A DNA stretch of 64,000 nucleotides from Lingula anatina (lineage: Eukaryota; Animalia; Brachiopoda): contig CM120646.1 of assembly GCA_051362555.1 (NCBI GenBank), positions 5,518,001 to 5,582,000 of the forward strand, read 5' to 3'. Below, piece by piece: positions 34,301 through 64,000 of the stretch. The stretch's first letter is position 1, and each line of letters begins with the position of its first letter. The notes beneath the pieces are model-generated. The model was not told where the DNA came from. It saw nothing but the letters and a program-made list of their open reading frames with translations, and searched no databases. The position numbers and the translations under genes are program-made.

Positions 34301-34332
<32 letters not shown>

Positions 34333-35410: not shown

Positions 35411-35764
35411 ATTGTTATGCACATTACAACTGGTACAGCAAATGGCACGTTTTGATTGAGGAGTTGATGTAGAAATCAGTCTCCAAAAATGGCGAATCTA
35501 TAGAAGATTATTTTTCTATTGTGACAAGGCTTTACACCTGGCCCCATAGACCTTTTTTTGACCCTATACATCATATTTCTCAAGGTCAACAGCTCATATT
35601 AAATAAAAGAAATTACAAATAACAATGAAGATAGATATTTCAAATCAAGTAATTGATAATGCTCATACATTTCTGCAGGGGTGGATCCAAAGATATTCTC
35701 TGGCAATCTTCCAAATTATCTTTGTTGACCCATCCTCCATTACCCCCACCCCCATCCCCGCACG

Positions 35765-35814
<50 letters not shown>

Positions 35815-36916
35815 TGTAGTCTCATGACTCACCGAGGTCAAAAAGAAAACCCTAGACTTCCACAGCGTACTTAGTCTAAAAGGGCGCAATACATTAAAAA
35901 CACAATGTCTCATAGGACGGAAATTAGTGAAAAACATTAGAAATGTAAGGAATTGAGCTGACAAACTCAGGTGATGGCAATATGTACTGTCTGTATTATA
36001 TAAAAATTGTCTCCACGCCTGCCAGTGACATATGAAGACCCACAGAGGGCTGTTAGACAGCAATTGTTTAGATGTGAAATATAATGATAACATATCAGTT
36101 TATTAAACTCCTACTTCATGTAGATAAGTATTATTCGATCTATATTCCTATTTTATGGAGCATACAATTATTAGATCTATTTTTTAATTGAGTGAAGTTT
36201 TGAACCTAGGAGTAGGAAACCCCGATGTTCTTCTATCCGTATCCGGAGGGTGGGGGCGTGTATCCGCTACCAGGGTCGCAGATAATTATGTGAGAAAAGT
36301 ACCATCATTTATCTAGAGACATACCTGTGAATGTTTAGTGATAAATCAATCTGTGGCCCTGGTACTTCCAGTGGAAGAGGGTAGGAGACCTGGAATTACT
36401 ATGTACCAACACTTCGTGAACGGTATTTACCGTCTCCCCGCCCGTATTCGATCAGAACTCAGGGGTTGAAGCAAGTTTTTTTTATTATTCTATCAATACT
36501 AATAACTTTTATCATCTGCTCTCCGTTTATATAATATTTCCCATTTCCCATGTCCAAAATTTACTGAAATTCGAAACACTGGAAGAGAGTGAAATACATA
36601 ATACTCCTCTGTGTAGCATTAAAGGCATGCCAAGCGCGGTACATACGCGGTAAAATCGATGGGAGAATAACATAAACCTGTTTTTGAGTTTTGAGTTTTA
36701 AAGTTTTAATTCTGCACAGCTGAATGTGCAATCACCGGTTTACTTCATGAAAGTGGTTAAATTATCACTTCTTTTTCTGCATATTTCATGTTTGTTCAAG
36801 AAAACAAGATGATTTTGGTTGTTTGGTTGTGCACCCCCTTCAGAAAAATCCTGGGCTCGGCAGTGAAAGTAATGCCTATTTTCCTTGTAGAGGGCGTAGA
36901 ACGTATAAGAAGGGAG

Positions 36917-37288
36917 TTAGTGCAAGGGGAAAACATCGGGAAAGAAATCGGGTTCATCCTTCTCACTCCCATACAGGATATTCTTTACTTTTTGTAAACT
37001 TCTCCAGCGCAGAATTTTTTTAATAACTGGATGGGTTTTATTGAATGCAGTGGTGATGAACTTTGTGGAAACTCTGTATTCCATACTGTGTTTTTTGCTG
37101 GCATTTCCCGGAATGTCCACATACATAGCCTCCCTCTTTAAGGTCTGACACAAGGTTATTTTTTCCCCATTGACGGTTTTAACTTTGATGTTCTTGTTAA
37201 TCGACGTTCGAAAATAATCACGCGGTATGCGAAAATCGACAGAATCGGTGTAGGCTCCCTTCAACTTGTTAACCGAGTGATGCCTTGA
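36917..37288 (-). pseudogene. Glycosyltransferase-like copy B, only the 3' third retained
   Basis: Encodes ...RHHSVNKLKGAYTDSVDF...FPDVFPLH*. Homology stops abruptly at about 37288, where the sequence switches to the family's downstream-flank sequence (aagaattttgaagaa, cf. 45030). Confidence 0.85.
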
Positions 37289-37649
37289 AGAATTTTGAAG
37301 AACGATCTAGATTTGTTTAATATGAATTGATTATAAAAGAAAAAGTAATGGAATATATATATATATATAATATTTACTGGATGTATCAAGTGTGCCTTTA
37401 TGATACGAAAGCTTTTATCTACTGGAAATAATAGGTATATATGTATATATAGTTATCGTTTTTATGTGACTTTGTGTTAGATATTAGTTGACTGAAAATT
37501 GTTTAATATAAAGACACACACACCGTATACACCTTTATTTATTCTTTATTCTTATTTATTCTTTATTCTTTCCATCAACGAATGAAATCTCCGGTATTGA
37601 CATTGTAACCAGCCTGTGTCCCTGTGTAGTGATAGTATTCGATGCAATA

Positions 37650-39313
37650 CACTGATGCTCATAAGTTAAGCAACACCCAGATTTTTTCAAAAGTTTCTTC
37701 TACCATGATCATTATTTCATTTGTTAGAGGAATTATGCATATTTCTTTCATATTTTATAAATAACCTATTCAAATTGAATATTTCTGTTAATGAAATACA
37801 CCACATAGCTTATTGTAATAATCAAAATAATTTTATTAACCAAACGGTACCAAAATAGGCCAAACCATGTGTCTAAAAAGTATGCTCACACAGCATAAAG
37901 TACGCGCTGATTAAAACAGCTTATCATGAAAAAATAAAGTTCAATCATCTAAGAATTAGTTTTAATAAAAGGAGACTGTCAATAATAAATGATTAATCGT
38001 CCATTATCCTATAAATATTGGGTGTGCCTTCCCTATTTTTGAACAACAGCTTCACAATGTCTCCTGCAATTTGCCACCAAATTCTGTCAATCTTGCACTG
38101 TAAGCCTGTTCCATTCCTAAATCACTGCCTGCTGGAGCTTTCTTATGTTTCCGACTGGAGGTTGTCTCTCATTAACTGCTCTGCCAATCATATCTTTAGC
38201 ATGTTCAATTACACTGAGAATTGGCGAATATTGCAGGGCCATCCAAATTTGGAATACCATGCTGTTGCAGCGCAATTTGCATGGACCTTGCTTTATGGAT
38301 GGGCAAATTGTCCTGCACCAAAATGATATTTCTTCCTGGATTTGCTTGAATGTGTGATTGCAAGCGCCCCAAAGGTATTTCTTCTCTGTATCATTGACCT
38401 GTGTATCTCCCTTGCATGACGTACAGTGGCAATTTTTCATCATATGAGAAAGCGCACCATACTATGACGGGTACTCCGCCATCCTGAATACGTGGGTGAT
38501 CACAATCATCCTGAAACGCTTGGTTTGGACCTCTCCAGACTCCCAGTCAACCATCTGCATACATCAAAGTGAATCTGCTCTCGTCAGTCCACAGGACTCT
38601 TCACCCAGTCCTTAGATTCTTTCTTTTTCGGCATCTGGCTTATGCCAAACTTATCTGCTTGTGTCTTTTGGTCGACGGTGGCTTTTTAGGAGGCTTTTTA
38701 GATGAAAGTCCAGCTTCTAAATGATGCCTGTTGACTGCCTGCCTACTGACTCGAGCTCTTCCTAATCCAGGCCAGATGTTTCTCAGTTGTTTGGTCGACA
38801 TGAACCGGTTCTGGTGGCGTAGTCGAACCTAACATCTTCTAACACTTGCGTCGGATAATCTCAGTCCACCAGAAAGAGGCTTGTCCAATACATGATGAGT
38901 TTGGCGCCATTTTGCTACCAGCTTGGACACTTGACTTGGTGCTGCTCTCTATTGCCTTACAATCTGTCTCTCTGGCACCCCAGCACGATGGCTTCCTATA
39001 ATTTGCCATCTGATTACCTCGTTGAGTCTTCTTCTAACCATTGGTTGGTACAATATAACAAATTGTGCCCATGAAACTAGCCAAATTGGAAGCTCCGCAT
39101 GGCATGCCCAAACTGTGTTTTTCGCAAGTGGCACCCCTATTGCATATTCTACCCTGCCCAACAGTAAATAGTACTCAAATGTCACGGTCCACTAGTTCGA
39201 AGTAAGAATGAGATACATGTTTAGCTACTGTACAAATTTTGCCTCAATAAAAAGCTTGGTTGCTGAGAAATTTGAGAAATTAGAAAGTGTTGCTTAACTT
39301 ATGAGCATCAGTG
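37650..39313 (-). mobile_element. Tc1/mariner (Tc1-like) transposon, full length with decayed transposase
   Basis: 27-bp TIR CACTGATGCTCATAAGTTAAGCAACAC with TA TSD. Transposase remnant about 39041-38009 (MVRRRLNEVIRWQIIG...; ...IEHAKDMIGRAV...HTQYL) carries stops and frameshifts. Empty site gcaaTAcatg is seen in the paralogous flank at about 45586. Confidence 0.92.
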
Positions 39314-39843
39314 TACATGAAAAGAACAATGTCTCAATAGATGGAAATTAGTGAAAACATACTAGAAATGTAAAGAACTACACTGAAACACTCAAATGAT
39401 AGCATGTAAAGTGTATTATATAAAAAAATGTCTCCATCGCTGCCAGTTACATATAAAGACCCACAGAGGGCTGTTAGACAGCAATTTTTAAGTACGCTTT
39501 GATATGCCATGTGACGATAACATATCAGTTTATTGTAGTCCTACTTCATGTGGATGAGTATAATTTGAACCATTTTTATGGAGCATATATTAAATGTAAT
39601 GTATGTTGGGAGAACAACATTAACCCGTTTTCGAGTTTCAAACTTTTAATTCTGCACAGCTACACGTAAAAATTCGCCAGTTTACTTTATGAAAGTGGTT
39701 AAATTACCCTTTATTTTCCTGCATAATTTATCTTTGTCCAACAAGGCAAGATAATTTTAGTTTTTCTTTTGGTTGTTTACCCCCTGAAAAAATACGGGGT
39801 TCAGCAGTGAAAGTAATGTCTAACTGTTTTCCTTGCAGAGGAG

Positions 39844-40952
39844 TTAGTTCAAGGGGAAAACATCCGGAAAAAAATCGGGCTCATCCTTCCCACTACCATA
39901 CAGGATTTTCTTAACTTTTGGTAAACTTCTCCAGTGCAAAATCCTTTGAATACCTGGATGGGACTTGTTGAATGCAGTGGTTATAAACTTTGTGGAAACT
40001 CTGTATTCCATATTGTGTTTTCTCTTTGCATTTCCTGGTATGTCAAAATACATGGCTTCTCTCTTAAAGGTTCGAAGCAAGTCAATATTCTCCCCGTTGG
40101 CGGTTTTAACTGTGTTGTTCTTGTTGATCCACGTGTGAAAATAATCACGCGATATACGGAAGTCTTCAGAATCGGTGTAGGCTCCCTTTAACTTATTAAC
40201 CGAGTGATGCCTTTTATTTTTTGCGTACACCGCGTTGCAAAGGACACGATTTGAATTATAAAACATCGCAGATATGTGAATGACAAACCACTGCGCAAAG
40301 AACCATGAGGTGTGATCTAAATCGCTTATGTATGGCAACATGAAGGAAATTGTGTGGCGGTGAAACCCGTCGAAAATAGCATCGAAATTGTATTTCACCC
40401 CGACTGGGGCTGGAGCATGATGGTGGTAAAAAAATATCCTGGAAACCCAACTGCCGGTTGGAAATCTAGTAAAAACAGTTCAAATCGATCAAAAGGGTTG
40501 CTTGGTAAATTTTTTCGCCACCAGCGTTTCTTATCCTTCTCATTAGTTAGCAACAAGTCATCGTCTAGAAATAGGTAGTACAAGTAGCCGCCGTCATTCC
40601 TTTTAGATGCACGTTCAATTGCTTCCCAAAGCAGCCGGTTACGACCTGTGGCGTGAGTGCTATTCGGGAAGTAGATGTCGCCTGTTTTGTCTCTGTACGT
40701 CAGCCATATTATTTCTCTATTCGGCGTGGCGTTGAGACCGGGAATAGGGTGTCTTGATGCGCCTTGGACGAGATAGACAAACTGCGGTTGTTCTGTCTTT
40801 TCTGGAGAATCATTTTCAACTGTGCTACTTGATATCGGAGAACGGGTAATCACATTGCCTGGGAAATCCAAGCGAGCCATATATGGCACCCACAGGAGTA
40901 TCAGAGAAACAACAGCAAACAAGGAAAGGCGAATGCATTTCTTCCTCGCCAT
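39844..40952 (-). pseudogene. Glycosyltransferase-like copy C, full length but with a 1-nt frameshift
   Basis: 1109 nt versus 1110 in copies A and E. One base is missing in the A7 run at 40428-40434; adding it restores GYFFYHHHAPAPVGVKYNFD with no other lesion. Confidence 0.8.
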
Positions 40953-43423
40953 CTGAGTTCTGATCCTAAACAAAAATAAAATGACGAAATTAATTAAATA
41001 AACCTTGATGTTTCTCTGAATAATCAGGACGCTTTGCTATCCAGCAGCACATCTGGAATAATAAGAAAGTATTTTGAGGATGTTCTCTTTCATTTGAGAC
41101 AAAATAGATCAACTACACTTACAAAATGATATTCATGTTTTTGAGCCAAATGTAGTGGTGTAAAAGATTTGAGAATATTTTATTAAAGTTAAATGACCAA
41201 ATAATTAATGAAAAAGCCACGAATCAATCCAATGTACCACTATGTGTGAATCAAACAGTTTCGAATTAATAAATGTAACAGAGGATTGTTCAAACAGTTT
41301 TGGATTAGTAAATGTTACAGAAGATTGTTCTGAGTTTGTAAATTGGTTTACAAAAATACGAAAGATGCCTTAATTTACGAGAAATAGCGTGTTACTCAGT
41401 CAGGAGTGGATCCAGTGATATTTTCTGACAGTCTTCCAAATTATTGTTGCTGGTCTATCCTCCACTGCCCCCACCCCACACCGGTACACTCGCGCGCGCG
41501 GTTTGGACTTACTAATGTGCCAATTTATTGAAAAAATAATCCCTGTTGTTAAAAGTCAAATGTATCCAGTTTTTGCCACTTAAGAAAATGAGTTGCTGGT
41601 TCTGATAGGGAGCTTGTCCTAGAAGATGTTGGACCAAACATCTGAACGGTGAGAGCAGGGCAGGAGGGGGGGGGGGGGGGGGGCGTCTCAACACTCTTTC
41701 GAGGGGAGGACTGCCCCAAGAAAATCTGAAGCAAATGGTGCATTTTGGTAGCATTTCACCTATAAATCAATTGATATTAATGTGAACACTACATTTTTAA
41801 TCTTATTTCAGAAATTATAAATACAAGAAAATATAAAAAGAAACAACTCTTTTATCATCACTGCTCATTGCTTAATACGTTTATTATAGGCCATATATCT
41901 ACCAGTCAGCCTCGAATAGTACCTCTCTCAATTGTCACAGTTATCGGAATGTTTTTTCATAGAATTTATGAACCTTTTAAATCCAAAACTTCATGTTAAA
42001 CTGTTAGAAAGAGCAACATTATTCATATCACCTCATCGTAAATTTCTAAAGTGGTCACTTGCACTGCCACCACCGTCAAACCGTGAGTCAATGTCACTGA
42101 CATCTTGATGTGACGGGTATGTGGCTGATTAAAGCATCTTTTTGTAGGATGATCTGCAAGGCCGGCTAGCCATGGCCTTGCCAACAAAAATGATCTACGC
42201 AAATTCTTTTTCCCCAGCTAGCTAAAAGGATCTTTGTCTGGAAAATTCATATCATTTGCTTCTTTTCTGTTTTTTAGGAAGCGATAGGTCTTTTTTGCCT
42301 CCATTCCCAGTGCTTGGAGCAGCGGTAGGTTCTAGGAAGCGAACGTGTCGTAAACAAATACGACCTATTTAAAAAGCCGGCGCAAAACATGTAAAGACGC
42401 AATGCTTGGTTTTCAAATTATAAATCTTTCGGTTGAAATGTCCTTAAGAAACAAATTAATATATTCCCAAAGCAAACAACATTTTATTTCGTGTAATGTA
42501 TTACGATTGCGAACCATTTTATGAGGGCTGTTCCTAATCTTTTATTTCCTTTCTTATATTACAGCGCTTTTTCGATTGTTTCCCCAAGCACTTTTTCTTC
42601 CGCGAAAGTAATACCTGGGCATGCACATGCTTCAAGATTTTGATATGATCTAAACCACTCGAGGCGATCACAATCTCAAGACATCTATTGTCACCGAGGT
42701 TAGTAAGAAAGTCACGGGATACCATTACAGTCAAAGTAAGGTCGTCCACGAAATCTTAAATAGAAAAATAGAAAAAAAAGATGCCTGTCTAAGTAAACTT
42801 GAAAAATTCTGACCGAATTCCAGAAGACCGAGATCTTCCCCTGTCGAGTCAGTTTCTTCGAAGGGTTAAGGCATATGCTATCACAAAAAAGTACTTGTAA
42901 CTTTTCTTTAGTTAACTTACCTATCACTAACACTAATGCTGATAATTATTCTGATAAATTGCACAATAATGGCCACGAGTGGGCGCAAACTAACTAATCA
43001 AACTTACATCTGTACTAACCTGTTTTTTACTAATACCAAGGTATTGTTCTTTCCTGCGTCCGTCCGGTGGTTTTCTTGTAGTATTGTACACTGTATATGA
43101 CAAGATATAGTACAGTGGAGCCAAGATAAGAATCTATGTCACGATCTTTAACTATACAATGTATGAAGGGGCGGTGTCAGTGAATTATTTGACATGGATT
43201 AATAGGGGAATGATAACTTTAAACCGTTTTCTCCAATCAAATAATTTTGAGTAAAATACGTTGTTAACATCGAACCTTAGGTGATCTGAGAGAATAGATT
43301 CACAGAAGTTCCTGTTCAATTCTAATTGCGACCATCGTTTAGATATTTAAGTATTCAGAGTAACATCGAGATTAATTTAATTAATTTTGTTCTTCTTATT
43401 TTCGTTTAGGATCAGAACTCACA

Positions 43424-44530
43424 TGGCGATGAAGAAATACATGCACGCATGTTAAGATACTTCGTAGTATATTACCTAGTACTACCAGTACTTCATGGGA
43501 TAAGAATTACTACTTCATGATAGAAGACGACTTTCTGTGTTAAAAATAAGGACCCTCAGGCGACTTTGCAATATTTACCACTTCATGGGACATTTGTATC
43601 CAAGCATGTTTCAGTTCTGGTTGGGTGACGAAATTAAACGAAAAGATCGATATGATGTTTCATTCTAGACTATATCATTTTCTATTTGCTATATCATTTT
43701 CAATATTCTTTAAAATTAGACAAAAGTTTTGGTGCGTGCCTTTACTCCTGAATTCTTGATACTGCAATATCAATAAAAGGCTCTCAATCTCAAATAAAGA
43801 CTCTTTTGAAAATGCGTGCTAGTGATTATGACTTGGAAATTGAACGGGTCGCTGTACATATCCAAACACCCCTACTAATCGTAAGTGCCCCCACTGTAAT
43901 GACATTGAAACAGAAACTCATTTTTTTTTACTGAAATGTAAAGAGCATAGTGATAGAAAAAGTACGCTCATGATACCACCTGAGTAGAATACAGACCATG
44001 AAAAACTTGACTGGCTGCTCCAATATTGGCATTTTTAAATGATAGTTTAAAATGAAAAATCTCAAAACTAAATGGTAAAACAAAGAAGTAGCTAGGCCTT
44101 TTATTCACAGGGAGCTCTTGAAATAGAGTACATTATTTATAGAAGTTAAACTCACGGTTATATACGAAAACATATGAAAACAGCAGCTTATTAAAGCTTT
44201 TTTTAATCAAAATAAACTTGACCTAGATAAAATACGAACTATCATTTTACGAACTAATATTTTATCGAGCACTAAAATGTGTACAGGTAACATTTCACAG
44301 GCTCTTTACTATTAGTTCTATAACATGTATGTAAATACAAAATCTTAACACACGTATCCATTTTCGCTGTTGTCTCTGTGATATTCCTGTGAGTGCCATA
44401 TATGGCTCGCTTGGATTTCCCAGACACTGTGATTACCCGTTCTCCGATATCTAATAGCGCAGGTGAAAATTATTCACCAGAAAGGACAGAACAACCGCAG
44501 TTTGTCTATCTTGTCCTAGGTGCATCAAGA
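43424..44530 (+). pseudogene. Glycosyltransferase-like copy D, 5' fragment interrupted by a 901-bp insertion
   Basis: Acceptor tttag/gatcagaactcac, then ATGGCGATGAAGAAA at about 43424-43449. Homology resumes at 44351-44530 (with in-frame TGA and TAG replacing W and Q codons) and then truncates. Confidence 0.85.
43450..44350. mobile_element. TG...CA element with 9-bp terminal inverted repeat and 6-bp TSD (solo LTR or non-autonomous DNA element)
   Basis: Ends TGTTAAGAT...ATCTTAACA with flanks cacgca / cacgta. It precisely interrupts copy D. Confidence 0.7.
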
Positions 44531-44584
44531 AGAATGGGAGAGAGATTTGTCCTTTTATGATAAACTCAGGTCGTACATGTATCA

Positions 44585-44783
44585 CCCCATTCTCATAGAT
44601 TAGATCGACCTACATTGGATCGACCTAACTCCCTGGGGGTTCACGCTAAATAGCTGTCAGCCGGGCGGACCCGAAAGTTAATTACCCCTTATAGCTTGTA
44701 GCTTAAGGCGGATTATCTGACAGTAATCTAGTGAGACTCCCCGCGGTGATAGATCGATCTAAAAGTTGTGAGAACAGAGCCCT
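44585..44783 (-). mobile_element. MITE-like repeat, inverted relative to 26503-26719
   Basis: Reverse-complement match to 26503-26719; absent from the paralogous flank at about 53660. Confidence 0.7.
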
Positions 44784-46126
44784 AGTATGTACAGACTATT
44801 TGAAAAGGAATATAAGGTCGAAAAATACGTCACATTTGAGTTTGACAAAATGACAAAATTACTGGTGGTAGGCCTACTGTTAAGGCAAGGTAGACCACCT
44901 ATAAGAATAGAGATGGTGTGTGTGTGATGTTTGTTTTAGGGTCCCATTGAGTGTGGAAAAATACAGGACGAGAGACATTTTATATATGAATGTTCGGCTT
45001 ACGTATAACCTCAAAGAAGATATTATGTCAAGAATTTTGAAGAATGACTTATATTTTTTAAAATTTGGATTGAACACTCACACACACACACAAACACAGA
45101 GAGAGAGAATGATTTATGGAAAAAATTTGGAAAATATTTAATAGATATATTAAGTGCATCTTTATGATACAAATATCTTTTATTTATTAGAAATAATAGG
45201 TACATATTTATATTTAGTTATTATGTAAATTTGTATTTAATATAAACTGATTGAAAACTGTTTAATATTAAGAAAAAACAGTGACTTATAAGCCCACCGG
45301 GGCTGGGTGCAAAAAATAAATTAATTAATTGACAAATTAAAAAAATTAAAAAGAAGGAAACACCTTGTGCACTTTTTCCTTAAACGACGTTCTACATTCT
45401 TTCCATCAATAATTGAACCATCTACGGTATGACATGGTAGCCAGCCCGTGTCCCCATGAAGTGCTAGGATAGGTAGAAATCGATGAAATCAGGAAAAGTA
45501 AGGAATTGGTTTATTTTGAGTGTTTTCACTATGAGAATACATCTAGAATCCCCAGACTTTAAAAGCATACTAAGTCTAAAAGGGTGCAATACATGAAAAA
45601 TGCAATATCTTATAGGACTGAAATTAGTTAAAAAACATACCAGAAATGTAAAGAACTACATACTCAAGTGATAGGAATATGTACTGTCTGTATTATAAAC
45701 ATCTCCATGCCTGCCAGTGACATATGAAGACCCCCAGAGGGCTGCAATTATTTAAGTACGCTTTGGTGTGCAATGTGACCCATCAGTTTATTATAGTCCT
45801 ACTTCATGTGAATGAGTATAATTTGATCCTTATCTCTTTTTTTTTGGAGCATTTATTAAATGTGTATGTTGGGAGAACAACATTAACCCGTTTCCGAGTT
45901 TCAAACTTTTAATTCTGCACAACTACACGTGAAATTCGCCAGTTTACTTTATGAAAGTGGTTAAATTACCTTTATTTTCCTGCATAATTTATGTTTGTCC
46001 AACGAGGCAAGATAATTTTCGTTTTTCTTTTGGTTGTCCACCCCCTGCAAAAAATCCTGGGTTCAGCACTGAAAGTAATGTCTTACTGTTTTCCTTATAG
46101 AGGGGGTAGAACGTATAAGAAGGGAG

Positions 46127-47236
46127 TTAGTGCAAGGGAAAAACATCAGGAAAGAAATCGGGTTCATCCTTCTCATTCCCATACAGGATTTTCTTTACTT
46201 TTGGTAAACTTCTCCAGTGCAGAATCCTTTGAATACCTGGATGGGACTTATTGAATGCAGTGGTTATAAACTTTGTGGAAACTCTGTATTCAACACTTTG
46301 TTTTCTCCTGGCTTTCCCTGGAATGTCAGTATACATGGCCTGTCCCTTAAAAGTCTGAAGCAAGTTAATTTTCCCCCCTTTAGCGGTTTCAACTGTGTTG
46401 TTCTTGTTAATCCACGTACGAAAATAGTCACGCGATATACGGAAGTCTTCAGAATCGGTGTAGGCTCCCTTTAACATATTGATCGAGTGATGCCTTGCAT
46501 TATTTGCGTACACCGCATTGCAAAGGACACGATTTGAATTATAAAACATCGCAGATATGTGAATGACAAACCACTGAGCAAAGAACCATGAGGTGTGATC
46601 TAAATCGCTTATGTATGGCAACAAAAAGGAAATTGTGTGGCGGTGAAACCCGTTGAAAATAGCATCGAAGTTGTATTTCACCCCAACTGGGGCTGGAGCA
46701 TCGTGCTTGTTAAAACTATATCTTGGAAACCCAACTGCCGGTTGGAAATCGAGTAAAAACATTTCAAATCGATCATAAGGGTTTCTTGGTAATTTTCTTC
46801 GCCACCAGCGTTTTTTATTCTCCTCATTAGTTAGCAACAGATCATCGTCCAGAAATAGGTAGTACAAGTAGCCGCCGTCATTCCTTTTAGCTGCACGTTC
46901 AATTGCTTCCCAAAGCAGCCGGTTACGACCTGTGGCATGAGTGCTATTCGGAAAGTAAATGTCGCCTGTTTTGTCTCTGTAAGTCAGCCATATTATTTCT
47001 CTATTCGGCGTGGCCTTGAGACCGGGAATAGGGCGTCTTGATGCACCTTGGACGAGATAGACAAACTGCGATTTTCTTGTCCTTTTGGGTGAATCATTTT
47101 CACCTGTGCTATTAGATATTGGAGAACGGGTAATCACAGTGTCTGGGACATCCAAGCGAGCCGTATATTGCACCCACAGGAGTATCACAGAGCCAACAGC
47201 AAACAAGAATACGTGAAAGCATTTCTTCATCGCCAT
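46127..47236 (-). CDS. Type II membrane putative glycosyltransferase, copy E, 369 aa
   Basis: Intact ORF colinear with copy A, with the same acceptor 13 nt before the ATG and the LFLDDD motif. Confidence 0.8.
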   Translation of the reverse strand: MAMKKCFHVFLFAVGSVILLWVQYTARLDVPDTVITRSPISNSTGENDSPKRTRKSQFVYLVQGASRRPIPGLKATPNREIIWLTYRDKTGDIYFPNSTHATGRNRLLWEAIERAAKRNDGGYLYYLFLDDDLLLTNEENKKRWWRRKLPRNPYDRFEMFLLDFQPAVGFPRYSFNKHDAPAPVGVKYNFDAIFNGFHRHTISFLLPYISDLDHTSWFFAQWFVIHISAMFYNSNRVLCNAVYANNARHHSINMLKGAYTDSEDFRISRDYFRTWINKNNTVETAKGGKINLLQTFKGQAMYTDIPGKARRKQSVEYRVSTKFITTAFNKSHPGIQRILHWRSLPKVKKILYGNEKDEPDFFPDVFPLH

Positions 47237-48839
47237 CTGAGACCCGATCCTAAACAAAAATAAAAAGAACAAAATTAATTAAAATAACCTTGATGTTCCT
47301 CTGAATTCTGAGGACGCTATGCTAACCAGCAGCGCATTTTAAATAATATGCTGTTTTGAGGATGTTCTCTTTCATTTGAGACAAAATAGATCGATTGTAT
47401 TAACAAAATCAGAAGCATATCGATATAGGCTACTATTGTTATTGAGGCTGATAATGTGGTTTAAAAGATTTGAGATTTTTTTATTCAAGATAAATCACCA
47501 AAGCAAGAATCAAAAGGCCACGAATGCATTCCACTCAGTTGCTCGGTTGCTTCAAAGGGTAAAGGTATATATGCTATCACAATAAGTACCTGTAACTATT
47601 CTTTTGTCACCTCACGTATCACTAACACTGCTGCTGCTAGTTATTCTGATAAATTCACATCTACTGCATAAAACAACTGGCCACGAGTGGGCGCAAACTA
47701 ACTCCCTTGTACATTTATACTAACCTGGGTTTTACCAGTACATTTGTCCTGCGTCCGTTCGCAGGCTCTATTCTAGTATTGTACACCGTTGAAGACAGGA
47801 TACAGTACAGTGCGGTCAAGATATGAATCTGTGTATCGCACGATCATCGACCCTACGATATATGTGTGTAAGTATGCAAATTATCATGATGGTCTGACCA
47901 ACAATTTTGGTAATTTCGGTTTAATTTGCATTTAATGATAAACTTCTCAGCTGCCCTGCATTATACATGTACTTGCACACGTATATACTGGGGAGGGGGA
48001 GGGGGCGGTGTCACCGTACAGTATTATTTGCCATGCATTCATAGGGAAATAATGAACTTCCATAAAAAACAATACTTTTGAAAAGAAAATTGATAACATC
48101 GCACTTAAGGTGATCTGGAGAATGGATTCATAAAATTTTAATTGTGGTCATCGTTTGAACATTTACCTTTGTGTGATTTGTCTTCGTTGGCACTTGAAGG
48201 CACTGTGCGTACAGCTCCCCCCCCTTCGAAAAAAAGTTAATTCCTAATTGATAAAATATTTAATTGTTTCACCCAAGTCCTCTTTTTAAAATTCCATGTC
48301 TTATGAACAAAATTTCCATGAGAATCGACCTTAAATCATTATTCGTAGATGCACACAGGGCGATAAAATAATAATAATAATAATAATAATAAATAGTACA
48401 TATTTCACGTAATTTCCATATCTAAATCTTATAAAGAACCTTAATAAAAAGAGATATTCCAACTAATTTCTAGATTCAATTCTAATCATAGCAACATAAA
48501 TAATTGCTTATAAAACCTTAATTCATACATGTAAAACGCCAGTACGATACAATACAAAGCTCCAAGAATGTCGAACAGGTTTTATTTGTCATTCTGTTGT
48601 GGTGTCCAATTCACACAGCCCCTACCATGCCAACCTGACAAGGTAACAGGAGAAGCCGCCCTACTACTAGACTCTTCTTTCCTGCCATGTTCTTCTTGTA
48701 GCTCGTACTGTGTATGTAGCTCCAAAAGTTCGTAATCAGGAGATGTCATTTTCAGAGCCATAGGGTGCATTCCCAGATCGATCCAGACGTTTAGATTTAG
48801 ATTGGCCTAACTCCTAACTATAACTAATTAGCTTTTTTG

Positions 48840-49295
48840 GAGGAGGGGAAAAGTTGTACGACCATTAGGTGCGATGTTATCAACGTATTCTTCTCAAAAT
48901 TATTTTTGATTAAAGAAAACGTTTACGATGCCCCTATGAATGCATGTCAGTTAATGTCAGCTGACACCGCCCCCCATAAATATACATGTTAATGAAAATT
49001 TGCATATATATGTATCCATTGGTCAAAGATCGTGCGGTAAATTGATGCATATCTTGCCTGCATTTTATTGGAGGGGGGAAATAATTGTACGACCATTAGG
49101 TGCGATGTTATCATCGTATTCTTGTCAAAATTATTTTTGATCAAAGAAAACGTTTATGATTCCCCTATGAATGCATGTCAGTTAAAGCACTGACACCGCC
49201 CCCATAAATATACATGTAAATGAAAATTTGCATATATATGTATCCATTGGTCAAAGATCGTGCGGTAAATTGATGCATATCTTGACTGCATTTTA
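48840..49295. repeat. Tandem duplication of about 230 bp upstream of copy F
   Basis: ttgtacgaccattaggtgcgatgttatc...gatcgtgcggtaaattgatgcatatcttg occurs twice (about 48854-49056 and 49085-49285). Confidence 0.85.
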
Positions 49296-49947
49296 CTGTA
49301 ACTTGTCAGTGTACAGTATTAGAAGAAAGCCACCGAACGGTAAGTACAAACATGTATGTAATAAAGAGTAAGTTTGCGCCCACTCGTAGCCAGTTGTGTT
49401 CTGCAGTATATGTGAATTTAGCAGAATAATTAGTAGCAGCAGTATTATTGATACGTAGTTGACTAAAGAATAGTTACAGGCACTTTTTGTGATAGCATAT
49501 ACCTTTACTCTTTGAAGCAACTGAGTCTGAGTAACATGTCATTTCTCGCGAATTAAGGCATTCTTACGTACATTGTATTTTTGTTAACAAGTTTACAAAC
49601 CCCAAAAAATCCACTGTAACATTTATTAATCCGAAACTGTATACATCAGTCACACATAGCGGCACATGGGATTGATTCAGGGTCTTTTGATTCATAATTT
49701 GGACATTTATCTTTAAAGCAAAATCTTTTAAACCACTTCATTCATCTCAATAACATTAGCATCTAACGAATATAATTTTTAAATGACTTTTTGAGTACAA
49801 TCGATCTACATGTTGTACTTCGTCCTAAATGAAAGATACTTTTATTCTTTGAAAATGTGCTGCTGGTTTACATAAAAGGGCACGTATACAGAGGAACACC
49901 AAGATTAATTAATTTTCTTTTAATTTTTGTTTAGGATCAGAACTCAG

Positions 49948-51048
49948 ATGGCGAAGAAGAAATGCTTTCGCCTATCCTTGTTTGCCGTTGTCTCTGTGAT
50001 ACTCCTGTACGTGCCATATATGGCTCGCTTGGATTTCCCAGACACTGTGATTACCCGTTCTCCGATATCAAGTAGCAGAGTAGAAAATGATTCTCCAGAA
50101 ACGACAGGACAACCGCAGTTTGTCTATCTCGTCCAAGGCGCATCGAGACACCCTATTCCCGGTCTCAAGGCCACGCCGAATAGAGAAATAATATGGCTGA
50201 CGTACAGAGACAAAACAGGCGACATCTACTTTCCGAATAGCACTCATGCCACAGGTCGTAACCGGCTGCTTTGGGAAGCAACTGAACGTGCATCTAAAAG
50301 GAATGACGGCGGCTACTTGTACTACCTATTTCTGGACGATGACTTGTTGCTAACTAATGAGAAGGATAAGAAACGCTGGTGGCGAAAAAATTTACCAAGC
50401 AACCCTTTTGAACGATTTGAACTGTTTTTACTGGATTTCCAACCGGCAGTTGGGTTTCCAGGTTATTTTTTTCACCTCCCTGATGTTCCATCCCCAGTTG
50501 GGGTGACATACAACTTCGATGCTATTTTCAACGGGTTTCACCGCCACACAATTTCCTTCATGTTGCCATACATAAGCGATTTAGATCACACCTCATGGTT
50601 CTTTGCGCAGTGGTTTGTCATTCACATATCTGCAATGTTTTATAATTCAAATCGTGTCCTTTGCAAAGCGGTGTACGCAAAAAATAAAAGGCATCACTCG
50701 AGCAATGGAGCCTACACCGATTCTAACGATTTCCGTATATCGCGTGACTATTTTCGAACGTGGTTTAACAAGAACAACACAGTTAAAACCGCCAACGGGG
50801 AGATTATTTACTTGCTTCAGACTTTTAAGACACAAGCCATGTATTTGGACATTCCGGGAAATGCCAGCAGAAAACACAATATGGAATACAGAGTTTCCAC
50901 AAAGTTTATAACCACTGCATTCAATAAGTCCCATCCAGGTGTTCAAAGGATTCTGCACTGGAGAAGTTTACCAAAAGTAAGGAATATTCTCTATGGAAGT
51001 GAGAAGGATGAACCCGATTTCTTTCCGGATGTTTTCCCCTTGCACTAA
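49948..51048 (+). CDS. Type II membrane putative glycosyltransferase, copy F, 366 aa
   Basis: Intact ORF, inverted relative to E, with a 9-nt in-frame deletion (HHSSNGAY versus HHSVNKLKGAY). Confidence 0.8.
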   Translation: MAKKKCFRLSLFAVVSVILLYVPYMARLDFPDTVITRSPISSSRVENDSPETTGQPQFVYLVQGASRHPIPGLKATPNREIIWLTYRDKTGDIYFPNSTHATGRNRLLWEATERASKRNDGGYLYYLFLDDDLLLTNEKDKKRWWRKNLPSNPFERFELFLLDFQPAVGFPGYFFHLPDVPSPVGVTYNFDAIFNGFHRHTISFMLPYISDLDHTSWFFAQWFVIHISAMFYNSNRVLCKAVYAKNKRHHSSNGAYTDSNDFRISRDYFRTWFNKNNTVKTANGEIIYLLQTFKTQAMYLDIPGNASRKHNMEYRVSTKFITTAFNKSHPGVQRILHWRSLPKVRNILYGSEKDEPDFFPDVFPLH

Positions 51049-53493: not shown

Positions 53494-53990
53494 CTCACAC
53501 ATCTATATCACACACACTCGTTCCTCTACACTTTCCCTAACAAACATGCCCGTCTCTTTGGGGTGGTAAACCTATCCTTAACTGTGTCGCCAATAATCTT
53601 GTCATTTTGTCAACTGTGACATATTTTTCTACCTTACATTCCCTTTCAAATAGTCTGTACATGTACGTCCCGAGTTTATCATAAAAGGGAGAATCTCTCC
53701 ATTCTCTCGACACCAAATCTCTCAAGCTTATATAGGCCTATATTACCGCACAACTATCCACATCTACCTGTACAGGTACACTAGCTCAAATTTACTTGTG
53801 ATGCTAAATTCTTGTAGTACAGTATATAACTCCCTTGATAAGTTATTTTTGCGCTTATTATGATATATGATAAAAAACTTTTTCGCTGATCTTGATGAAT
53901 TCATTAAAATCAGTTTGGTCCAATATCTCAGCATATTTAACCACCTTATGGGAATGGGAATGCAATCCGTCTCTTCGCGGAGCCCCAATA

Positions 53991-56913: not shown

Positions 56914-56982
56914 TCATTCTGTTAACAACTTCAGAGCTCTCACTGCTGGGATGACCTGGTCTATACGGCTGACACCTGTTAA

Positions 56983-57017
<35 letters not shown>

Positions 57018-57975
57018 GTTAAAAAAAAATAAAATGTCAGTGATTAAGGCCATGTGCAATTTTGCTCAAAAGCTGTGGAAAAATTGAACATTCATTTTTT
57101 ATTAATAATATGTCGAATAATACATAAAGTCTTTTACTCACTAATAAAGTAATGAAACAAAAAATACTGAAGTTACTATAAATTAATTTATTAAACTAAT
57201 GAAATTATTGAAGAATATCATAAACCTTCACTATAATCTTGTTTTACAAAAGTAAGAGGGTTAAGCTCCAAAACTAAATTTAAGTTAAAAAAAGGGCCTT
57301 CAAAAACAAATGATTTTTTTTGCTTTACAAACACTAAATAGACCATTTCATTCTAGTTTCAAAAGTTCAGCAGTCAAGTACAGAATGCCATGCCAACATA
57401 CAATATTCACAAATATATTTAAAATATATATTATACCTAGAATATCCATGAGTTTATCCATCATTTCCTGGAAAACTGGGAAGAATTCATCATGCTGCTC
57501 AAGGCGTTTACGGACACTGGAATGAATAAATATAAGGTATGTGAAAGCTTGAAAAAGGCAGGCAATGGAAATTCTTCTTAAAGAAAAGATGGTTTCATTC
57601 TTCTTATAAATAGTATGGTTTCAAAGGAACAAATCATTCAATTAACATAAATATCCAAGCTGCCTTTCTGCTTAATTATGATACTCATAAATCTTCTCAT
57701 TAACTTTTAATGTCTGTCAAACTATGGATGGACTAAAAACATCAAAATTTTATTGAAAACAAAATGTGTAGAAAACTAAAAAATGCACTTTTTTCACACC
57801 TCTAATATCACCTTTTTTTTCAGAAAAAGTAGTACACTGTACACACTGTACCTATCTAGGTCTTCCTCCTCCAGTAGTTGTTTCAGCTGCCTCCAGGTGG
57901 TGCTGGTGTGCTGTTGACACAGTTGACCCACAGCATCTACTATGGCAGTGGACTTGGCATCTTCAGCTGATTTAA

Positions 57976-58006
<31 letters not shown>

Positions 58007-59748
58007 ATTGATATGCTAATCTATACATTAATCTATAGAAAAATTATGTAAAAACTAATTGGGTGCAGGACACAAAACCTCCGCCCAGGTTCTTCTTGAG
58101 GACACTTGTTTGAGAGAACACAACTGAGCAATTGCTCTTCTCATGGGCCACAGGGTCTGGAAATCTATTTCTGCTAATCTCTGATTGATGATGCTGATGG
58201 TGGACTGTAGTCATTATGATGATGACAAAGATCAAACTCAAAGAGTACTTACGCAGTCCTAAGAGATCTCTGAGAGACCTAAGCACATTGTGGACCTCCC
58301 CAAGCTTGCTGTAGATCTCGTTCATTCTGGGATACACTCCATTCACAGATTCCACATCAAAAAGGTTCTGGAAGTGCTCCACTATGTTCTTCAGCACTGT
58401 ACCAGAAGGAAGCTCTGTGCCGTCCTGAAATACACCAAATCTCATCAATATTTTAAAATGGCAATGCAGCTTAACCCCCCTGTGTCTGTGAATTAATCTT
58501 GTCCGTTGGCTTGTCTGTCCATCCTCCCCTCCCCCGAACAAAAAGTTGGTAACTCTTATGGAAGTTGAAGTGTAACTATATATAGGATAAACAATTTAAT
58601 AAAGGTGGTTTTCTGTGTCCAATCAACATCTGTATCATCTTGCAATGCACATACATTTATAAAGTAAAATGAACAGTCGGGTAAATATAAAAATCTCAGA
58701 ACTGCACAAAAAGTTCAACAAAAGAAGCCTACATGGTTCCCCAACCTCATACTTTGCCCCTCTACTTACTGGCTCCTCTGACACGCCACCCTCAAAGGTC
58801 AAGGCATCAATGGCTGAAATGATCTGAGAGACTTTGGCGTCCCCCACCAGCTTACGGTACGTGAAGGGTGCGAGCCTGGTTGACAGCTTGTTCACAGATT
58901 GCTGCAACTCCTACGAGGTACAAAATCAAAAATTAAATTTATATTGCTATATAGCATTTGTGGTGCTTTGACGGCACACAATAGACTTAAAGAGTAGCTT
59001 TCTTATAAAATTTGTAGCTACATCTCAACCGGAATGTTCTAGATAAATTTTAAAGGAACAATGACTTAACAATACAGTATCTGTAAAATACACAAATTGT
59101 TCACACTCTGCTGCAACTCTTACAGGGTAAATTAATTTTTTTAATGACAAATAATTTTATACAATAAAATAAAATTTATATATATAATATATATATTTTC
59201 CCCTTTTTTCTACACTCTGATTCTTTTACAAGCATCTACAGTTTTTGTCTAAAGATGCCTTTTCATGTTCTGAAAACTGAAAACACTGATAATAAAATTC
59301 ATTTTTTAATCATTGTAATCAAAAGAAGTGAAAATAAAACTTAACTAAAAAGTTTTTGATAACTCATTTATAAAAGTTTTAAAAAAATCATAAATGGGAT
59401 CTTACTCTAAGAGAGGCAAGCTCCTGCACCCAGAATTCTAGAGTGGGTAGAACATGACTCCATGTCCTTTCACACCAGACTGCATGCTCTCGTTTGTGAG
59501 ATGTGCGCTGAGCAAAGTCTTTAAGTTTCGGGGCTCTTTCAGAATTAACAATCTTCAGTACATCTTTTGCAAACTGAGGAAATAAAAAATTCATTCATCA
59601 ATACAACTGAAAATTGATAAAAGTGCACAAAAAATTGCTGCATTATTGCTGTAAAGAGTTTCAACACTAATGAATTCTTAATCAATTATTACTGTCAATG
59701 GGTATTATTTCTTTTTTTATTCACAGCGTTACATATTTTTGTTGAAAA

Positions 59749-59792
<44 letters not shown>

Positions 59793-59930
59793 AAGAGAGA
59801 GAGAGAGAGAGAGACTGTCATCTTAACAAACCTGTTCAAGTCTTGGAAAAGCCTCAACTGCATTCTGCTGCTTTTCAATCTTTGGAGTTATATGCCTGAG
59901 GTCAAATACACCAAGACATTCACAGGTACC
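56914..59930 (-). CDS. CEP70: Centrosomal protein of 70 kDa, 3' seven exons (5' part outside the window)
   Basis: Exons 59930-59832, 59573-59406, 58910-58746, 58424-58253, 57966-57852, 57516-57437, 56975-56914, GT-AG and frame-consistent. [27 protein letters not shown]...HDEFFPVFQ...IDQVIPAVRALKLLTE* matches the CEP70 C-terminus as I recall it ([27 protein letters not shown]...HEEFFPAFQ). Confidence 0.9.
59751..59814. repeat. (GT)n(GA)n microsatellite in a CEP70 intron
   Basis: Direct reading. Confidence 0.9.
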
Positions 59931-60673
59931 CTAAAGATAACAAAAAAATTTAAACTTAATGATATTTTTAAAGTCAAACCGTCATCCTGATATTCTACTG
60001 TCTTAACCTAGAATGACAGCATGCATATACACACATGTAAAAAAACATCATGATTCAATTGAATATGTGAATATAATCTTATCAGATAATGTTTTCTGTG
60101 ACTGAACAAATAATAACAACCAAACTAAAACACATTACTGAATTGTTTTGCCAGTCTTGTTGCAATAACCAACTTGCTAAATAAATATGAGACAAATAAA
60201 AAAGAAGACTGAAATGGTAATACTGGGTATATGGCACCAAACCTTATCATACAAGTGATAGCTAGAAGATTGTAATTTAAAAAATGACACGCAGGTAAAC
60301 TACTGATAATTTATGTATATATTGCAACAAAATTAATTAAACTAAATGGGGGTTGGCTGATGTTTAAAAAAATAAACTGTTAGGTATGTTGATTGCAGCA
60401 GTATCAACAAATAAAAATGACAGAAAAATATCAAGTGTAGAAGAGAGAAGAATGGTATACTGGTATATAGACGAGTTTTTATCAGATAAAAAAGGAAACA
60501 AAGCTGTCAAATGTACAGACAAAAAAAAAAAAAAAAAAAAACTCATGCACAACAGGTAACATGATTAATCAGATTACAGTTTCAGGACCAGGTAGAGACA
60601 GTGAAAATACAAGTGAAGACAAATCGAATGATGTTAAGAAACTGACACACATTGGAAAAAATTATTTTTAGAA

Positions 60674-63600
60674 CATGATGTAGATTTGGCAAAAGATTGT
60701 GGCTGTGAATGTGATCAGTTGCAATTTTATGTCAACACCACACCAAAGTCCAGTCAACAGCTTTGTTTGTTTTGTTGTAGGATTAAACACTGTAAGATGA
60801 TTAGTTTACAGGTAGACAAGATAAAATCTTGATTGCAATCATAGCTCAGAAGTCACCTGTGGAAAGTCTACTACTTGGGCTGTGACAACTGTACACATGA
60901 CACATGAATAGAACAATGGTGACACTAAATACAACTGGTAAGAAGGGACAGACAGAGATAAGACAGCTTGACAGAAGTAAACTTGAATATCTTGACATAT
61001 TTGACATGTGGGATAAGGTATAAAAGCAACTACACAGTAGAAACCAGACAGAAAGCTCTTGGACAAGAGCATAAGAACAGTCATGATGTAAGGTGTACAT
61101 AAATTTTGGGCCATGATATAGAATTGGCAGAAGATTGTGGCTGTGAATGTGACCAGTCACAATTTTAAGTCAACATTACACCATGGTACAGACAGCGTGA
61201 AAACACAAGTGAAGATTTATTCGAAGATTCAACCCACTGTATATTTTTGGCAATAAAGGAGTGGCTGGGGAATATAACACCAGTGCTTCTTTTTGTCAAA
61301 CCTGTTCAGTGGGAAAAACCTCAAATAATGTGAAGAAATAGATGCAGATGGGATAAAAATTGGCCATGATGTAGAATTGGCAGAAGATTGTGGCTGTGAA
61401 TGTGATCAGTCGCAATTTTAAGTCAACATTACAACATGGTACAGACAGCGTGAAAACAGAAGTGAAGAAATGTACGAAGAAGATTTAACCCACTGTATAT
61501 TTTTGGCAATAAAGGAGTGGCTGTGGAATATAACACCAGTGCTTCTTTTTGTCAAACCTGTTCAGTGGGAAAAACCTCAAATAATGTGAAGAAATTGATG
61601 CAGATGGAAAACAAATTTGGTCATGATGTAAAATTGGCAGAAGATTGTGGCTGTGAAACTGACCAGTCACAATTTTATGTCAACATTACAACATGGTCAA
61701 GACAGCGTGAAAATACGAGTGAAGACGAATCGAATGATGTTAAGAATTTGACACACGTTGGGAAAGATTATTTTAGGCCATAATGTAGAATTGGCAGAAG
61801 ATTGTGGCTGTAAAACTGATCAGTTGCAATTTCATGTCAATACTACACCAAAGTCCAGTCAACAGCTTTGTTTGGTTTGTTGTAGGATTAAACATTGTAA
61901 GATGATTAGTTTACAGGTAGACAAGATAAAATCTTGATTGCAATCATAGCTGAGAAGTCACCTGTGGAAAGTCTACTACTTGGGCTGTGACAACTGTACA
62001 CATGACACATGAATAGAACAATGGTGACACTAAATACAACTGGTAAGAAGGGACAGACAGAGATAAGACAGCTTGACAGAAGTAAGCTTGAATATCTTGA
62101 CATATTTGACATGGGGGATAAGGTATAAAAGCAACTACACAGTAGAAACCAGACAGAAAGCTCTTGGATAAGAGCATAAGAACAGTCATGATGTAAGGTG
62201 TGCATACATTTTGGGCCATGATGTAGAATTGGCAGAAGATTGTGGCTGTGAATGTGACCAGTCATAATTTTATGTCAACATTACACCATGGTACAGACAG
62301 CGTGAAAACACAAGTGAAGAAATAATCGAAGATTCAACCCACTGTATATTTTTGGCAATAAAGGAGTGGCTGGGGAATATAACACCAGTGCTTCTTTTTG
62401 TCAAACCTGTTCAGTGGGAAAAACCTCAAATAATGTAAAGAAATAGATGCAGATGGGATAAAAATTGGCCATGATGTAGAATTGGCAGAAGATTGTGGCT
62501 GTGAATGTGATCAGTCGCAATTTTAAGTCAACATTACACCATGGTACAGACGGCGTTAAAAACAGTAGTGAAGAAATGTAAGAAGAAGATTCAACCCACT
62601 GTATATTTTTGGCAATAAAGGAGTGGCTGGGGAATATAACACCAGTGCTTCTTTTTGTCAAACCTGTTCAGTGGGAAAAACCTCAAATAATATGAAGAAA
62701 TTGATGCAGATGGAAAATAAATTTGGTCATGATGTAAAATTGGCAGAAGATTGTGGCTGTGAATGTGATCAGTCGCAATTTAAGTCAACATTACAACATG
62801 GTATAGACGGCGTGAAAACAGAAGTGAAGAAATGTACGAAGAAGATTTAACCCCACTGTATATTTTTGGCAATAAAGGAGTGGCTGGGGAATATAACACC
62901 AGTGCTTCTTTTTGTCAAACCTGTTCAGTGGGTAAAACCTCAAATAATGTGAAGAAATAGATGCAGATGGGATTAAAATTGGCCATGATGTAGAATTGGC
63001 AGAAGATTGTGGCTGTGAAACTGACCAGTCACAATTTTATGTCAACATTACACCATGGTACAGACAGCGTGAAAACAGAAGTGAAGATTTATTCGAAGAT
63101 TCAACCCACTGTATATTTTTGGCAATAAAGGAGTGGCTGGGGAATATAACACCAGTGCTTCTTTTTGTCAAACCTGTTCAGTGGGAAAAACCTCAAATAA
63201 TGTGAAGAAATAGATGCAGGTGGAAAACAAATTTGGTCATGATGTAAAATTGGCAGAAGATTGTGGCTGTGAAACTGACCAGTCACAATTTGATGTCAAC
63301 ATTACAACATGGTCAAGACAGCGTGAAAATACAATTGAAGACGAATCGAATGATGTTAAGAATTTGACACACGTTGGGAAAGATTATTTTAGGCCATGAT
63401 GTAGAATTGGCAGAAGATTGTGGCTGTTAAACTGATCAGTTGCAATTTCATGTCAATACTACACCAAAGTCCAGTCAACAGCTTTGTTTGGTTTGTTGTA
63501 GGATTAAACATTGTAAGATGATTAGTTTACAGGTAGACAAGATAAAATCTTGATTGCAATCATAGCTGAGAAGTCACCTGTGGAAAGTCTACTACTTGGG

Positions 63601-63907
63601 CTGTGACAACTGTACACATGACACATGAATAGAACAATGGTGACACTAAATACAACTGGTAAGAAGGGACAGACAGAGAAAAGACAGCTTGACAGAAGTA
63701 AACTTGAATATCTTGACATATTTGACATGGGGGATGAGGTATAAAAGCAACTACACAGTAGAAACCAGACAGAAAGCTCTTGGATAAGAGCATAAGAACA
63801 GTCATGATGTAAGGTGTGCATAAATTTTGGGCCATGATGTAGAATTGGCAGAAGATTGTGGCTGTGAATGTGACCAGTCACAATTTTATGTCAACATTAC
63901 ACCATGG
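60674..63907 (+). ncRNA. Candidate pre-miRNA hairpin family A, 12 copies; predicted 5p AUUGGCAGAAGAUUGUGGCUGU
   Basis: Copies start at about 60674, 61111, 61364, 61621, 61778, 62216, 62469, 62727, 62983, 63237, 63394, 63832. ttggcagaagattgtggctg pairs with cagtcacaattttatgtcaa (19/20 pairs, 3 G-U), with a 10-nt loop and lower stem ccatgatgta/tacaccatgg. Confidence 0.7.
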
Positions 63908-64000
63908 TACAGACAGCATGAAAACACAAGTGAAGAAATATTCAAAGATTCAACCCACTGTATATTTTTGGCAATAAAGGAGTGGCTGGGGAATATAACA
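61233..64000 (+). ncRNA. Candidate pre-miRNA hairpin family B, 7 copies (last truncated by the window); predicted 5p UUUGGCAAUAAAGGAGUGGCUG
   Basis: Copies start at about 61233, 61489, 62338, 62595, 62852, 63105, 63954. tttggcaataaaggagtggctgg pairs with ccagtgcttctttttgtcaaa (2 bulges, G-U pairs), with an 11-nt loop, basal stem cccactg/cagtggg, and CCTC (CNNC) 17 nt past the predicted 3' cut. Confidence 0.7.

Follow-up and report, generated by a model that had tools for sequence, protein, structure and literature searches.

In zebrafish, the miR-430 locus consists of repeated units, each of which combines a 650-bp TATA promoter with 2 or 3 precursor triplets (bioRxiv 10.1101/2021.08.09.455629). 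The Tribolium mir-3851/mir-3836 genes form lineage-specific, tandem multicopy microRNA (miRNA) clusters that were missed until embryos were sampled (PMC4691753), and a tandem-duplicated miRNA cluster on Capitella scaffold_488 has been called reminiscent of miR-430 (PMC8915122); both clusters have been likened to miR-430 or to maternal mRNA clearance (PMC4691753, PMC8915122). Here, we describe an array of hairpins resembling miRNA precursors (pre-miRNAs) in the brachiopod Lingula anatina, located near the end of a 64,000-nt stretch (assembly GCA_051362555.1, contig CM120646.1, positions 5,518,001 to 5,582,000), hereafter the window. At least 19 hairpins, 12 of type A and 7 of type B, follow one another on the plus strand from position 60596 to beyond the window end at 64000. 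The array is probably an amplified, lineage-specific miRNA locus, the plus-strand transcript of which would be processed by Microprocessor and then by Dicer to release 5p guides.

The likeness to the zebrafish miR-430 locus lies in the repeated units, a TATA-like motif in each (in Lingula, a candidate promoter element), the variable number of paralogous precursor repeats and a tandem organization that is prone to assembly collapse, whereas the differences are the spacer (371 bp in Lingula versus 650 bp) and the location of the Lingula array, which is antisense inside an intron. The miR-430 genes are a 3p family with a different seed. Because both the seed and the arm differ, the Lingula array is not a homologue or a member of miR-430. 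The Tribolium clusters are likewise lineage-specific tandem miRNA clusters in a protostome but are made of divergent paralogues, the seeds quoted for them differ from the UUGGCA type of the Lingula hairpins, and a per-unit promoter is not described in the accessible text. The Capitella cluster, compared by its description only, is also lineage-specific and tandem and likewise escaped notice before embryonic samples were included.

Among the names of the 98 Lingula genes in MirGeneDB 2.1, Mir-96-P1, P2 and P3 as well as Novel-1 and Novel-2 appear once each, and no family of unknown type is listed with several copies (PMC8728216); as the list gives names only, one copy of the array may be annotated there as Novel-1 or Novel-2. 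The accessible supplement of MirGeneDB 3.0 has one Lingula row, Lan-NOVEL-1 (PMC11701709). The accessible parts of PMC6943042 and PMC12257675 are silent on the array locus, and the word ‘microRNA’ has 0 occurrences in the main text of the 2026 Lingula genome paper (PMC13121700). In the open-licence literature, no description of a Lingula miRNA array was found, and the array is apparently uncatalogued.

Organization of the array

At a higher level, the hairpins are grouped into repeat units, about 1104 and 1618 bp long, that are 88–96% identical in a BLAST comparison of the window (Table 1). Each unit starts with TATAAAAG, followed at a distance of 104 nt by the first predicted 5p start, then by the hairpins in the order (A-B)n-A-A' with n = 2 or 4, and finally by a spacer. 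The A' hairpin that closes the series is a variant of A; its lower stem is short, and it has a 3' flank of its own. In the spacer at 60739..61109, ATTAAA is found at 60782 and TATAAAAG at 61019-61026, again 104 nt upstream of the next predicted 5p start. No further copies of the array were detected by BLAST elsewhere in the window, where the only matches were poly(A) runs. A protein-coding reading of the array was rejected, the open reading frames (ORFs), for which no further search was made, being at most 122 amino acids (aa) long and repeat-derived, and so was a third hairpin within the spacer (61850-61950, z -1.12). The hairpin at the left edge (5p start 60685) carries the first 8 nt of B on an A body, which represents either the ancestral state or conversion between the two types. 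AATAAA occurs inside the 5p arm in all seven B copies (e.g. at 61252), where it would be masked by pairing.

Folding and the Microprocessor register

On the plus strand, the regions of A and B each fold into a single hairpin that beats 200 of 200 shuffled sequences (z -3.35 and -4.81, respectively), and the four A and B copies folded with their flanks span the same range (z -3.35 to -4.81). On the minus strand, 6 and 2 of the 200 shuffles fold equally well (z -2.25 and -2.58). A minus-strand miRNA, i.e. an intronic one in the sense of the host gene, was judged less likely by this weaker fold and by the strand of the RNA described below. The A, B and interior A' hairpins have stems of 29–35 pairs, precursors of 53–57 nt and z values below -3.3, in keeping with the single hairpin (stem of ~35 bp, precursor of 54–60 nt, apical loop) expected of a canonical, Drosha-dependent animal miRNA gene; the edge copy at 60685 does not reach this level (z -0.83).

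The cut positions predicted for all copies are anchored in the register of the original prediction, which had placed the 5p starts of A and B at 61123 and 61246 and the 3' cuts after 61176 and 61302. These coordinates are correct, and the CNNC motifs reported at +17, CAGC in A (61193) and CCTC in B (61319), are where they were said to be. Distances of 13 nt for the basal cut and of 16–18 nt for CNNC are the stated rules (PMC7174388), and one processing motif suffices for miRNA processing (PMC10954719). The motif occurs at +17 in all 12 A-type and all 6 complete B copies, with AG, GG, AA or CT as the inner dinucleotide, so that at least one processing motif, as required of a canonical miRNA, is present in 18 of 18 complete copies. 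A single CNNC is weak evidence, given that 21 of 158 hairpins outside the array have one at +16 to +18. When the flanks of A, A' and B are compared between +12 and +30, only 3 of the 19 columns are common to all, and two of these are the C's at +17 and +20 (chance of about 0.02–0.05). The apical UGUG had been implied for both types; it is present in 10 of the 12 A-type copies and in only 1 of the 6 complete B copies.

The 13/11 geometry is clear for B, where the basal junction is sharp. In A, this junction is ambiguous: the stem can be extended in some copies, is short in A' and is opened in the copy at 61123, where A instead of G at -5 leaves an 8x8 loop in place of the lower stem in the minimum free energy (MFE) fold. 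If the rule is followed blindly from the end of the MFE stem, CNNC is recovered in all 6 of the B hairpins but in only 3 of the 9 A-type hairpins called, the stem being 3–5 nt longer in four of the six misses and shorter in two. The lower-stem string that had been quoted for A at 61110 is not found there and occurs in other copies (e.g. at 61363). The 2-nt overhang is uninformative as a test, because 13/11 counting on a symmetric stem always yields 2 nt. Basal UG at -14/-13 is absent in register 0 from the five copies tested. Since shifts of -1 and +1, like register 0, keep CNNC within the 16–18 range, the predicted 5' ends are to be read as ±1.

The two hairpin types had been taken to fit this geometry independently, but their alignment, in which 35 of 90 columns are invariant over 14 copies, shows that A and B are paralogues. 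Their agreement on the register is therefore inherited from a common ancestor and provides no independent evidence. What stands of the argument that such agreement is unlikely for a random palindrome is its conclusion: pri-miRNA-like hairpins, rather than random palindromes, are supported. The stronger evidence is the compensatory change, the invariance of the 5p arm, the retention of the CNNC C's in diverged flanks, the coincidence of the predicted B 5' end with the start of miR-182 (9 nt) and the hairpin-poor plus-strand RNA of one run.

Conservation of the pairing and of the arms

Among the 33 hand-aligned stem columns of one A and one B copy, 27 pair in both, five in one only and one in neither. 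The 27 columns paired in both comprise 15 unchanged pairs, five with one-sided changes and seven with two-sided, compensatory changes. Changed A pairs remain paired in 12 of 14 cases, compared with 5.3–7.7 expected (P between 0.0003 and 0.007, depending on the transition share). Across 14 of the 19 copies, 86.9% of the cells pair, compared with 36–46% when the partners are slid.

The variation among copies is unevenly distributed over the hairpin. Among the eight main A copies, the variable sites number 0 of 22 in the 5p arm, 3 of 9 in the loop and 4 of 23 in the 3p arm (P 0.019); copy 62739 was omitted from these counts on account of a 1-nt deletion. When three A' copies are added, two of the 22 sites of the 5p arm become variable, both in the edge copy (P 0.032). 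Every one of the 3p changes at +36 to +38 keeps the pairing as a wobble. In the six B copies, the 5p arm is invariant (0/22), as is the 3p arm, and hence B does not indicate the guide arm. Thus, the features that distinguish a miRNA gene, i.e. a mature arm more conserved than the star and the loop and changes that preserve the structure, are found in the array over few independent lineages.

This pattern bears on the possibility that the array is a satellite, derived from an ancestral miRNA gene or another fold-back and now unprocessed. In that case, the hairpin features would be relics propagated by unequal crossing-over, and the RNA of the spacer would reflect stray transcription. The window does harbor other satellites (with 146-bp and 34-bp units), the units of the array are highly similar (88–96%), the edge copy is decaying and three of the four RNA sequencing runs described below lack spacer RNA. 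A decaying relic is nevertheless improbable, given that the variation avoids the 5p arm (P 0.02–0.03) and mostly keeps the pairs, that CNNC is retained in all 18 complete copies, and that the RNA comes from one strand, ends sharply and leaves the hairpins nearly uncovered.

The seed and the MIR-96 family

In the predicted register, the 5p arms of A and B have a common seed core, UUGGCA (nt 2–7). This hexamer is the seed core of the MIR-96 family (miR-96/182/183), in which the 5p arm is dominant, and the protostome members of the family differ from vertebrate miR-182 at position 8. The likeness is closest in B, where nt 1–9 of the predicted 5p arm are those of human miR-182-5p (sequence printed in PMC8558643); beyond the seed, B matches that miRNA at only 2 of 13 positions (nt 10–22). 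No sequence of miR-182 is printed in the main texts of PMC4503353 and PMC7785829. The match of A is confined to nt 2–7, and A begins with A, not U. Seed identity with the family thus holds for B, conditional on the predicted register, and does not extend to the rest of the mature arm or to the precursor. In MirGeneDB 2.1, the family is represented by single Lingula genes, Lan-Mir-96-P1, P2 and P3, which are known here by name alone. The match of B to miR-182 may be convergent rather than inherited. Judged by these sequences, the array is best left unassigned to MIR-96, because the seed agrees and the similarity beyond the seed fails.

A search of the segment 60590-62250 against Rfam gave nine weak matches (including mir-599, mir-60 and mir-132), which were rejected as far below the gathering score and based on shape only.

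The same data are relevant to a variant of the proposal, namely, that the array is processed but yields its guide from the 3p arm or from a 5p isoform displaced by 1 nt, the miR-182-like seed being coincidental. The CNNC spacing accommodates registers -1, 0 and +1 alike, register -1 yields a basal UG in two of the four A-type copies tested, the two arms of B are equally invariant, and the A guide would start with A rather than U. We consider such a shift quite improbable because the 3p arm of A varies at 7 of 23 sites and register 0 is exactly where the 9 nt shared with miR-182 begin.

RNA over the spacer

Four of the nine L. anatina long RNA sequencing (RNA-seq) runs (X1, X4, X5 and X7) were mapped to 59820-61350 at 90% likeness; X1 is a stranded polyA library, of which about 6% of the reads were used. 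In X1, the minus-strand exon of CEP70, the host gene described below, is covered 121–148x by pairs with the first mate on the plus strand. The spacer, at 60756-61067, is covered 4–29x (about 38 reads) by pairs with the first mate on the minus strand, i.e. by plus-strand RNA. The coverage drops to at most 2x in the bins over the hairpins, with two reads of plus-strand RNA over B and two opposite-strand reads over A. Six molecules end at 60758, with no loose ends and a depth beside them of 11; this position is 20 nt beyond the 3' cut predicted for A'. This pattern is as expected of a leftover flank once the hairpins have been excised; 60758 may instead be a transcription start. Six of the 21 variants in the spacer reads match differences among the spacer copies of the window itself, and four of five reads diverge strongly at 61016-61038.

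The depth over the CEP70 exon at 59820-59939 is about 30-fold or more higher in X1 than in X4, X5 and X7. Use of the once-per-unit ATTAAA as a poly(A) signal is unsupported, as X1 reads pass through it.

The CEP70 host gene

A 57-residue exon at 58254-58424 on the minus strand is 100% identical to the L. anatina protein ‘centrosomal protein of 70 kDa-like’, and seven exons of this CEP70-like protein match the window at 56917-59930 with near identity. Spliced reads depart from the exon at 59939 toward an upstream exon beyond the mapped stretch, and a longer relative (P0002) finds no match in the window for its first 45 residues; therefore, the segment from 59940 to the window end is a CEP70 intron. 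The hairpin array sits in this intron, on the strand opposite to CEP70. The database CEP70 model comprises 293 aa, compared with 632 aa in a nemertean, and its match stops at the exon adjoining the array. A model that ends there suggests that an earlier assembly or annotation broke at the array. Residues 1–15 of this model (P0001) do not match the upstream exon of the spliced reads and have a weak match in unrelated DNA at 53766-53828, so that the model seems to be truncated or wrongly joined beside the array.

The antisense location raises the prospect of a different kind of regulatory RNA, i.e. another small-RNA class, such as a PIWI-interacting RNA (piRNA)-like cluster or hairpin-derived endogenous small interfering RNAs, or an antisense long RNA tuning CEP70, with Microprocessor not being the main reader. 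The sole run with plus-strand RNA is also rich in CEP70 reads, and repeating piRNA loci are described in the annelid Capitella (PMC8915122). A source of this kind is very improbable: each hairpin has a stem the size of a pre-miRNA (54–57-nt precursor), its lower stem makes about one turn and its CNNC is at a fixed place, and as the array is intronic, its products could not pair with the mature CEP70 mRNA.

Proposed processing and function

The proposal that the array is a miRNA locus starts from what is observed, i.e. the array and its layout, the folding, the compensatory divergence of A and B, the near-invariant 5p arms, CNNC and the X1 spacer RNA. Because the host gene CEP70 runs the opposite way, the array would be transcribed on the plus strand from its own promoter or promoters, with the once-per-unit TATAAAAG as a candidate. 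Drosha/DGCR8 (Pasha) would then cut at 61123 and 61246, within 1 nt, and at the equivalent positions of the other copies, aided by a CNNC reader of the SRSF3 type, and dicing would yield 5p guides of about 22 nt with the seed core UUGGCA. The 5p arm is the probable guide because it is the conserved one. A and B would act as near-redundant members of a single seed family at a high dose, and the spacer RNA would be the 3' piece left over after excision of the last hairpin of a unit. The high copy number could serve to produce one seed family in a burst and so to repress many mRNAs simultaneously. By analogy with the clusters discussed above, a role in mRNA clearance in the early embryo or the gonad is a tentative suggestion, to which we give somewhat less than even odds.

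A number of observations weigh against this proposal. The evidence consists of DNA and long RNA-seq, with the mature and star strands, the overhang and the homogeneity of the 5' ends being predictions. No Rfam family matches at the gathering score anywhere in the window, and among the matches at E up to 10 in 60590-62250 there is no mir-96, mir-182, mir-183 or mir-263 model. The covariation comes from only 2–3 independent lineages and a hand-made alignment, with the structure drawn from the same sequences, and recent homogenization accounts for part of the invariance, the spacer copies differing by only 0.02. The RNA evidence is thin (about 38 reads from 6% of one run), and spacer RNA is seen in one of four runs; X4, X5 and X7 have none there, and little CEP70 RNA either. 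The 15 of 21 read variants that are missing from the copies in the window imply that the reads may derive from other copies or alleles. The RNA end is preceded by an A' hairpin, the poorest substrate of all, with a short lower stem and a competing small hairpin. The X1 coverage has its center at about 60900 and does not reach the next hairpin but fades close to TATAAAAG; because of this fading, TATAAAAG may be a variant poly(A) signal instead of a promoter. In 121190 positions outside the array, there are 9 exact matches to the TATAAAAG octamer and 198 to the loose TATA consensus TATAWAWR; with a consensus this common, the promoter reading of TATAAAAG is weak by itself.

Other features of the window

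Outside the array and CEP70, the window contains about six near-identical intronless ORFs in tandem at 32236-51048 (about 375–390 aa; five on the minus strand and one on the plus strand, some fragmented). They share an N-terminal hydrophobic stretch and a DDD motif and are glycosyltransferase-like by appearance only; the two members tested have no Pfam match at E 0.1. A lysine-rich ORF of 497 aa on the minus strand (2927-4420) has a C-terminal SMAP domain (PF15477, E 5.7e-18) and is presumably KNOP1-like. The two satellites are located at 27575-29288 (146-bp unit, 11.8 copies, 94% matches) and 25153-25890 (34-bp unit, 21.7 copies, 74%). The strongest hairpin in the window (14788-14869; -69.4 kcal/mol per 100 nt), a stem of 35 pairs closed by a loop of 4 nt, lacks CNNC and may be a small inverted-repeat element.

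Table 1. Positions of the hairpin array, its parts and the host gene in the window.
Feature	Positions	Strand	Remarks
Tandem hairpin array	60596..64000 (passes window end)	+	Higher-order units of ~1.1 and 1.6 kb
Unit 1: TATAAAAG + A-B-A-B-A-A' + spacer	61019..62123	+	Predicted 5p starts 61123, 61246, 61376, 61502, 61633, 61790
Unit 2: TATAAAAG + (A-B)x4-A-A' + spacer	62124..63739	+	Predicted 5p starts 62228, 62351, 62481, 62608, 62739, 62865, 62995, 63118, 63249, 63406
Unit 3, start: TATAAAAG, A (63844), B (63967, cut by window end)	63740..64000	+	
Edge A' hairpin, degenerate (z -0.83)	60672..60749	+	Seed of B on A body
A' closing a unit	61777..61854, also 63393-63470	+	Short lower stem; CNNC (CAAC) at +17
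Hairpin-free spacer, 371 bp	60739..61109, also 61844-62214, 63460-63830	+	
Hairpin A (copy of the original prediction)	61110..61187	+	Lower stem 61110-61122; 5p arm predicted at 61123-61144 and 3' cut after 61176
UGUG at +20 of hairpin A	61142..61145	+	
CNNC (CAGC)	61193..61196	+	+17 from predicted A cut
Hairpin B	61233..61313	+	Lower stem 61233-61245; predicted 5p start 61246; predicted 3' cut after 61302
CNNC (CCTC)	61319..61322	+	+17 from predicted B cut
Plus-strand RNA stretch, X1	60758..61040 (right end approximate)	+	12–29x; 6 molecules end at 60758
CEP70, seven 3' coding exons	56917..59939	-	Protein match and spliced reads

Implications

The Microprocessor geometry itself is textbook knowledge. 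If the array is processed, it adds a high-copy miRNA family that the curated list of Lingula gene names does not show, in a phylum whose small RNAs have hardly been studied. It also provides exact guide sequences and cut sites that can be tested, and it is a natural example of a lophotrochozoan locus in which CNNC has been retained. A further-reaching scenario casts the array as a spiralian counterpart of miR-430, with promoter-bearing units of 6–10 precursors each, an independent origin based on a MIR-96-type seed and a function in the clearance of maternal mRNA at zygotic activation; taken as a whole, this scenario is unlikely but not remote. If the spacers are promoters that fire at genome activation, the miR-430 architecture would have arisen independently outside vertebrates, and, should this be true, maternal mRNA clearance in Spiralia would become testable with a single seed.

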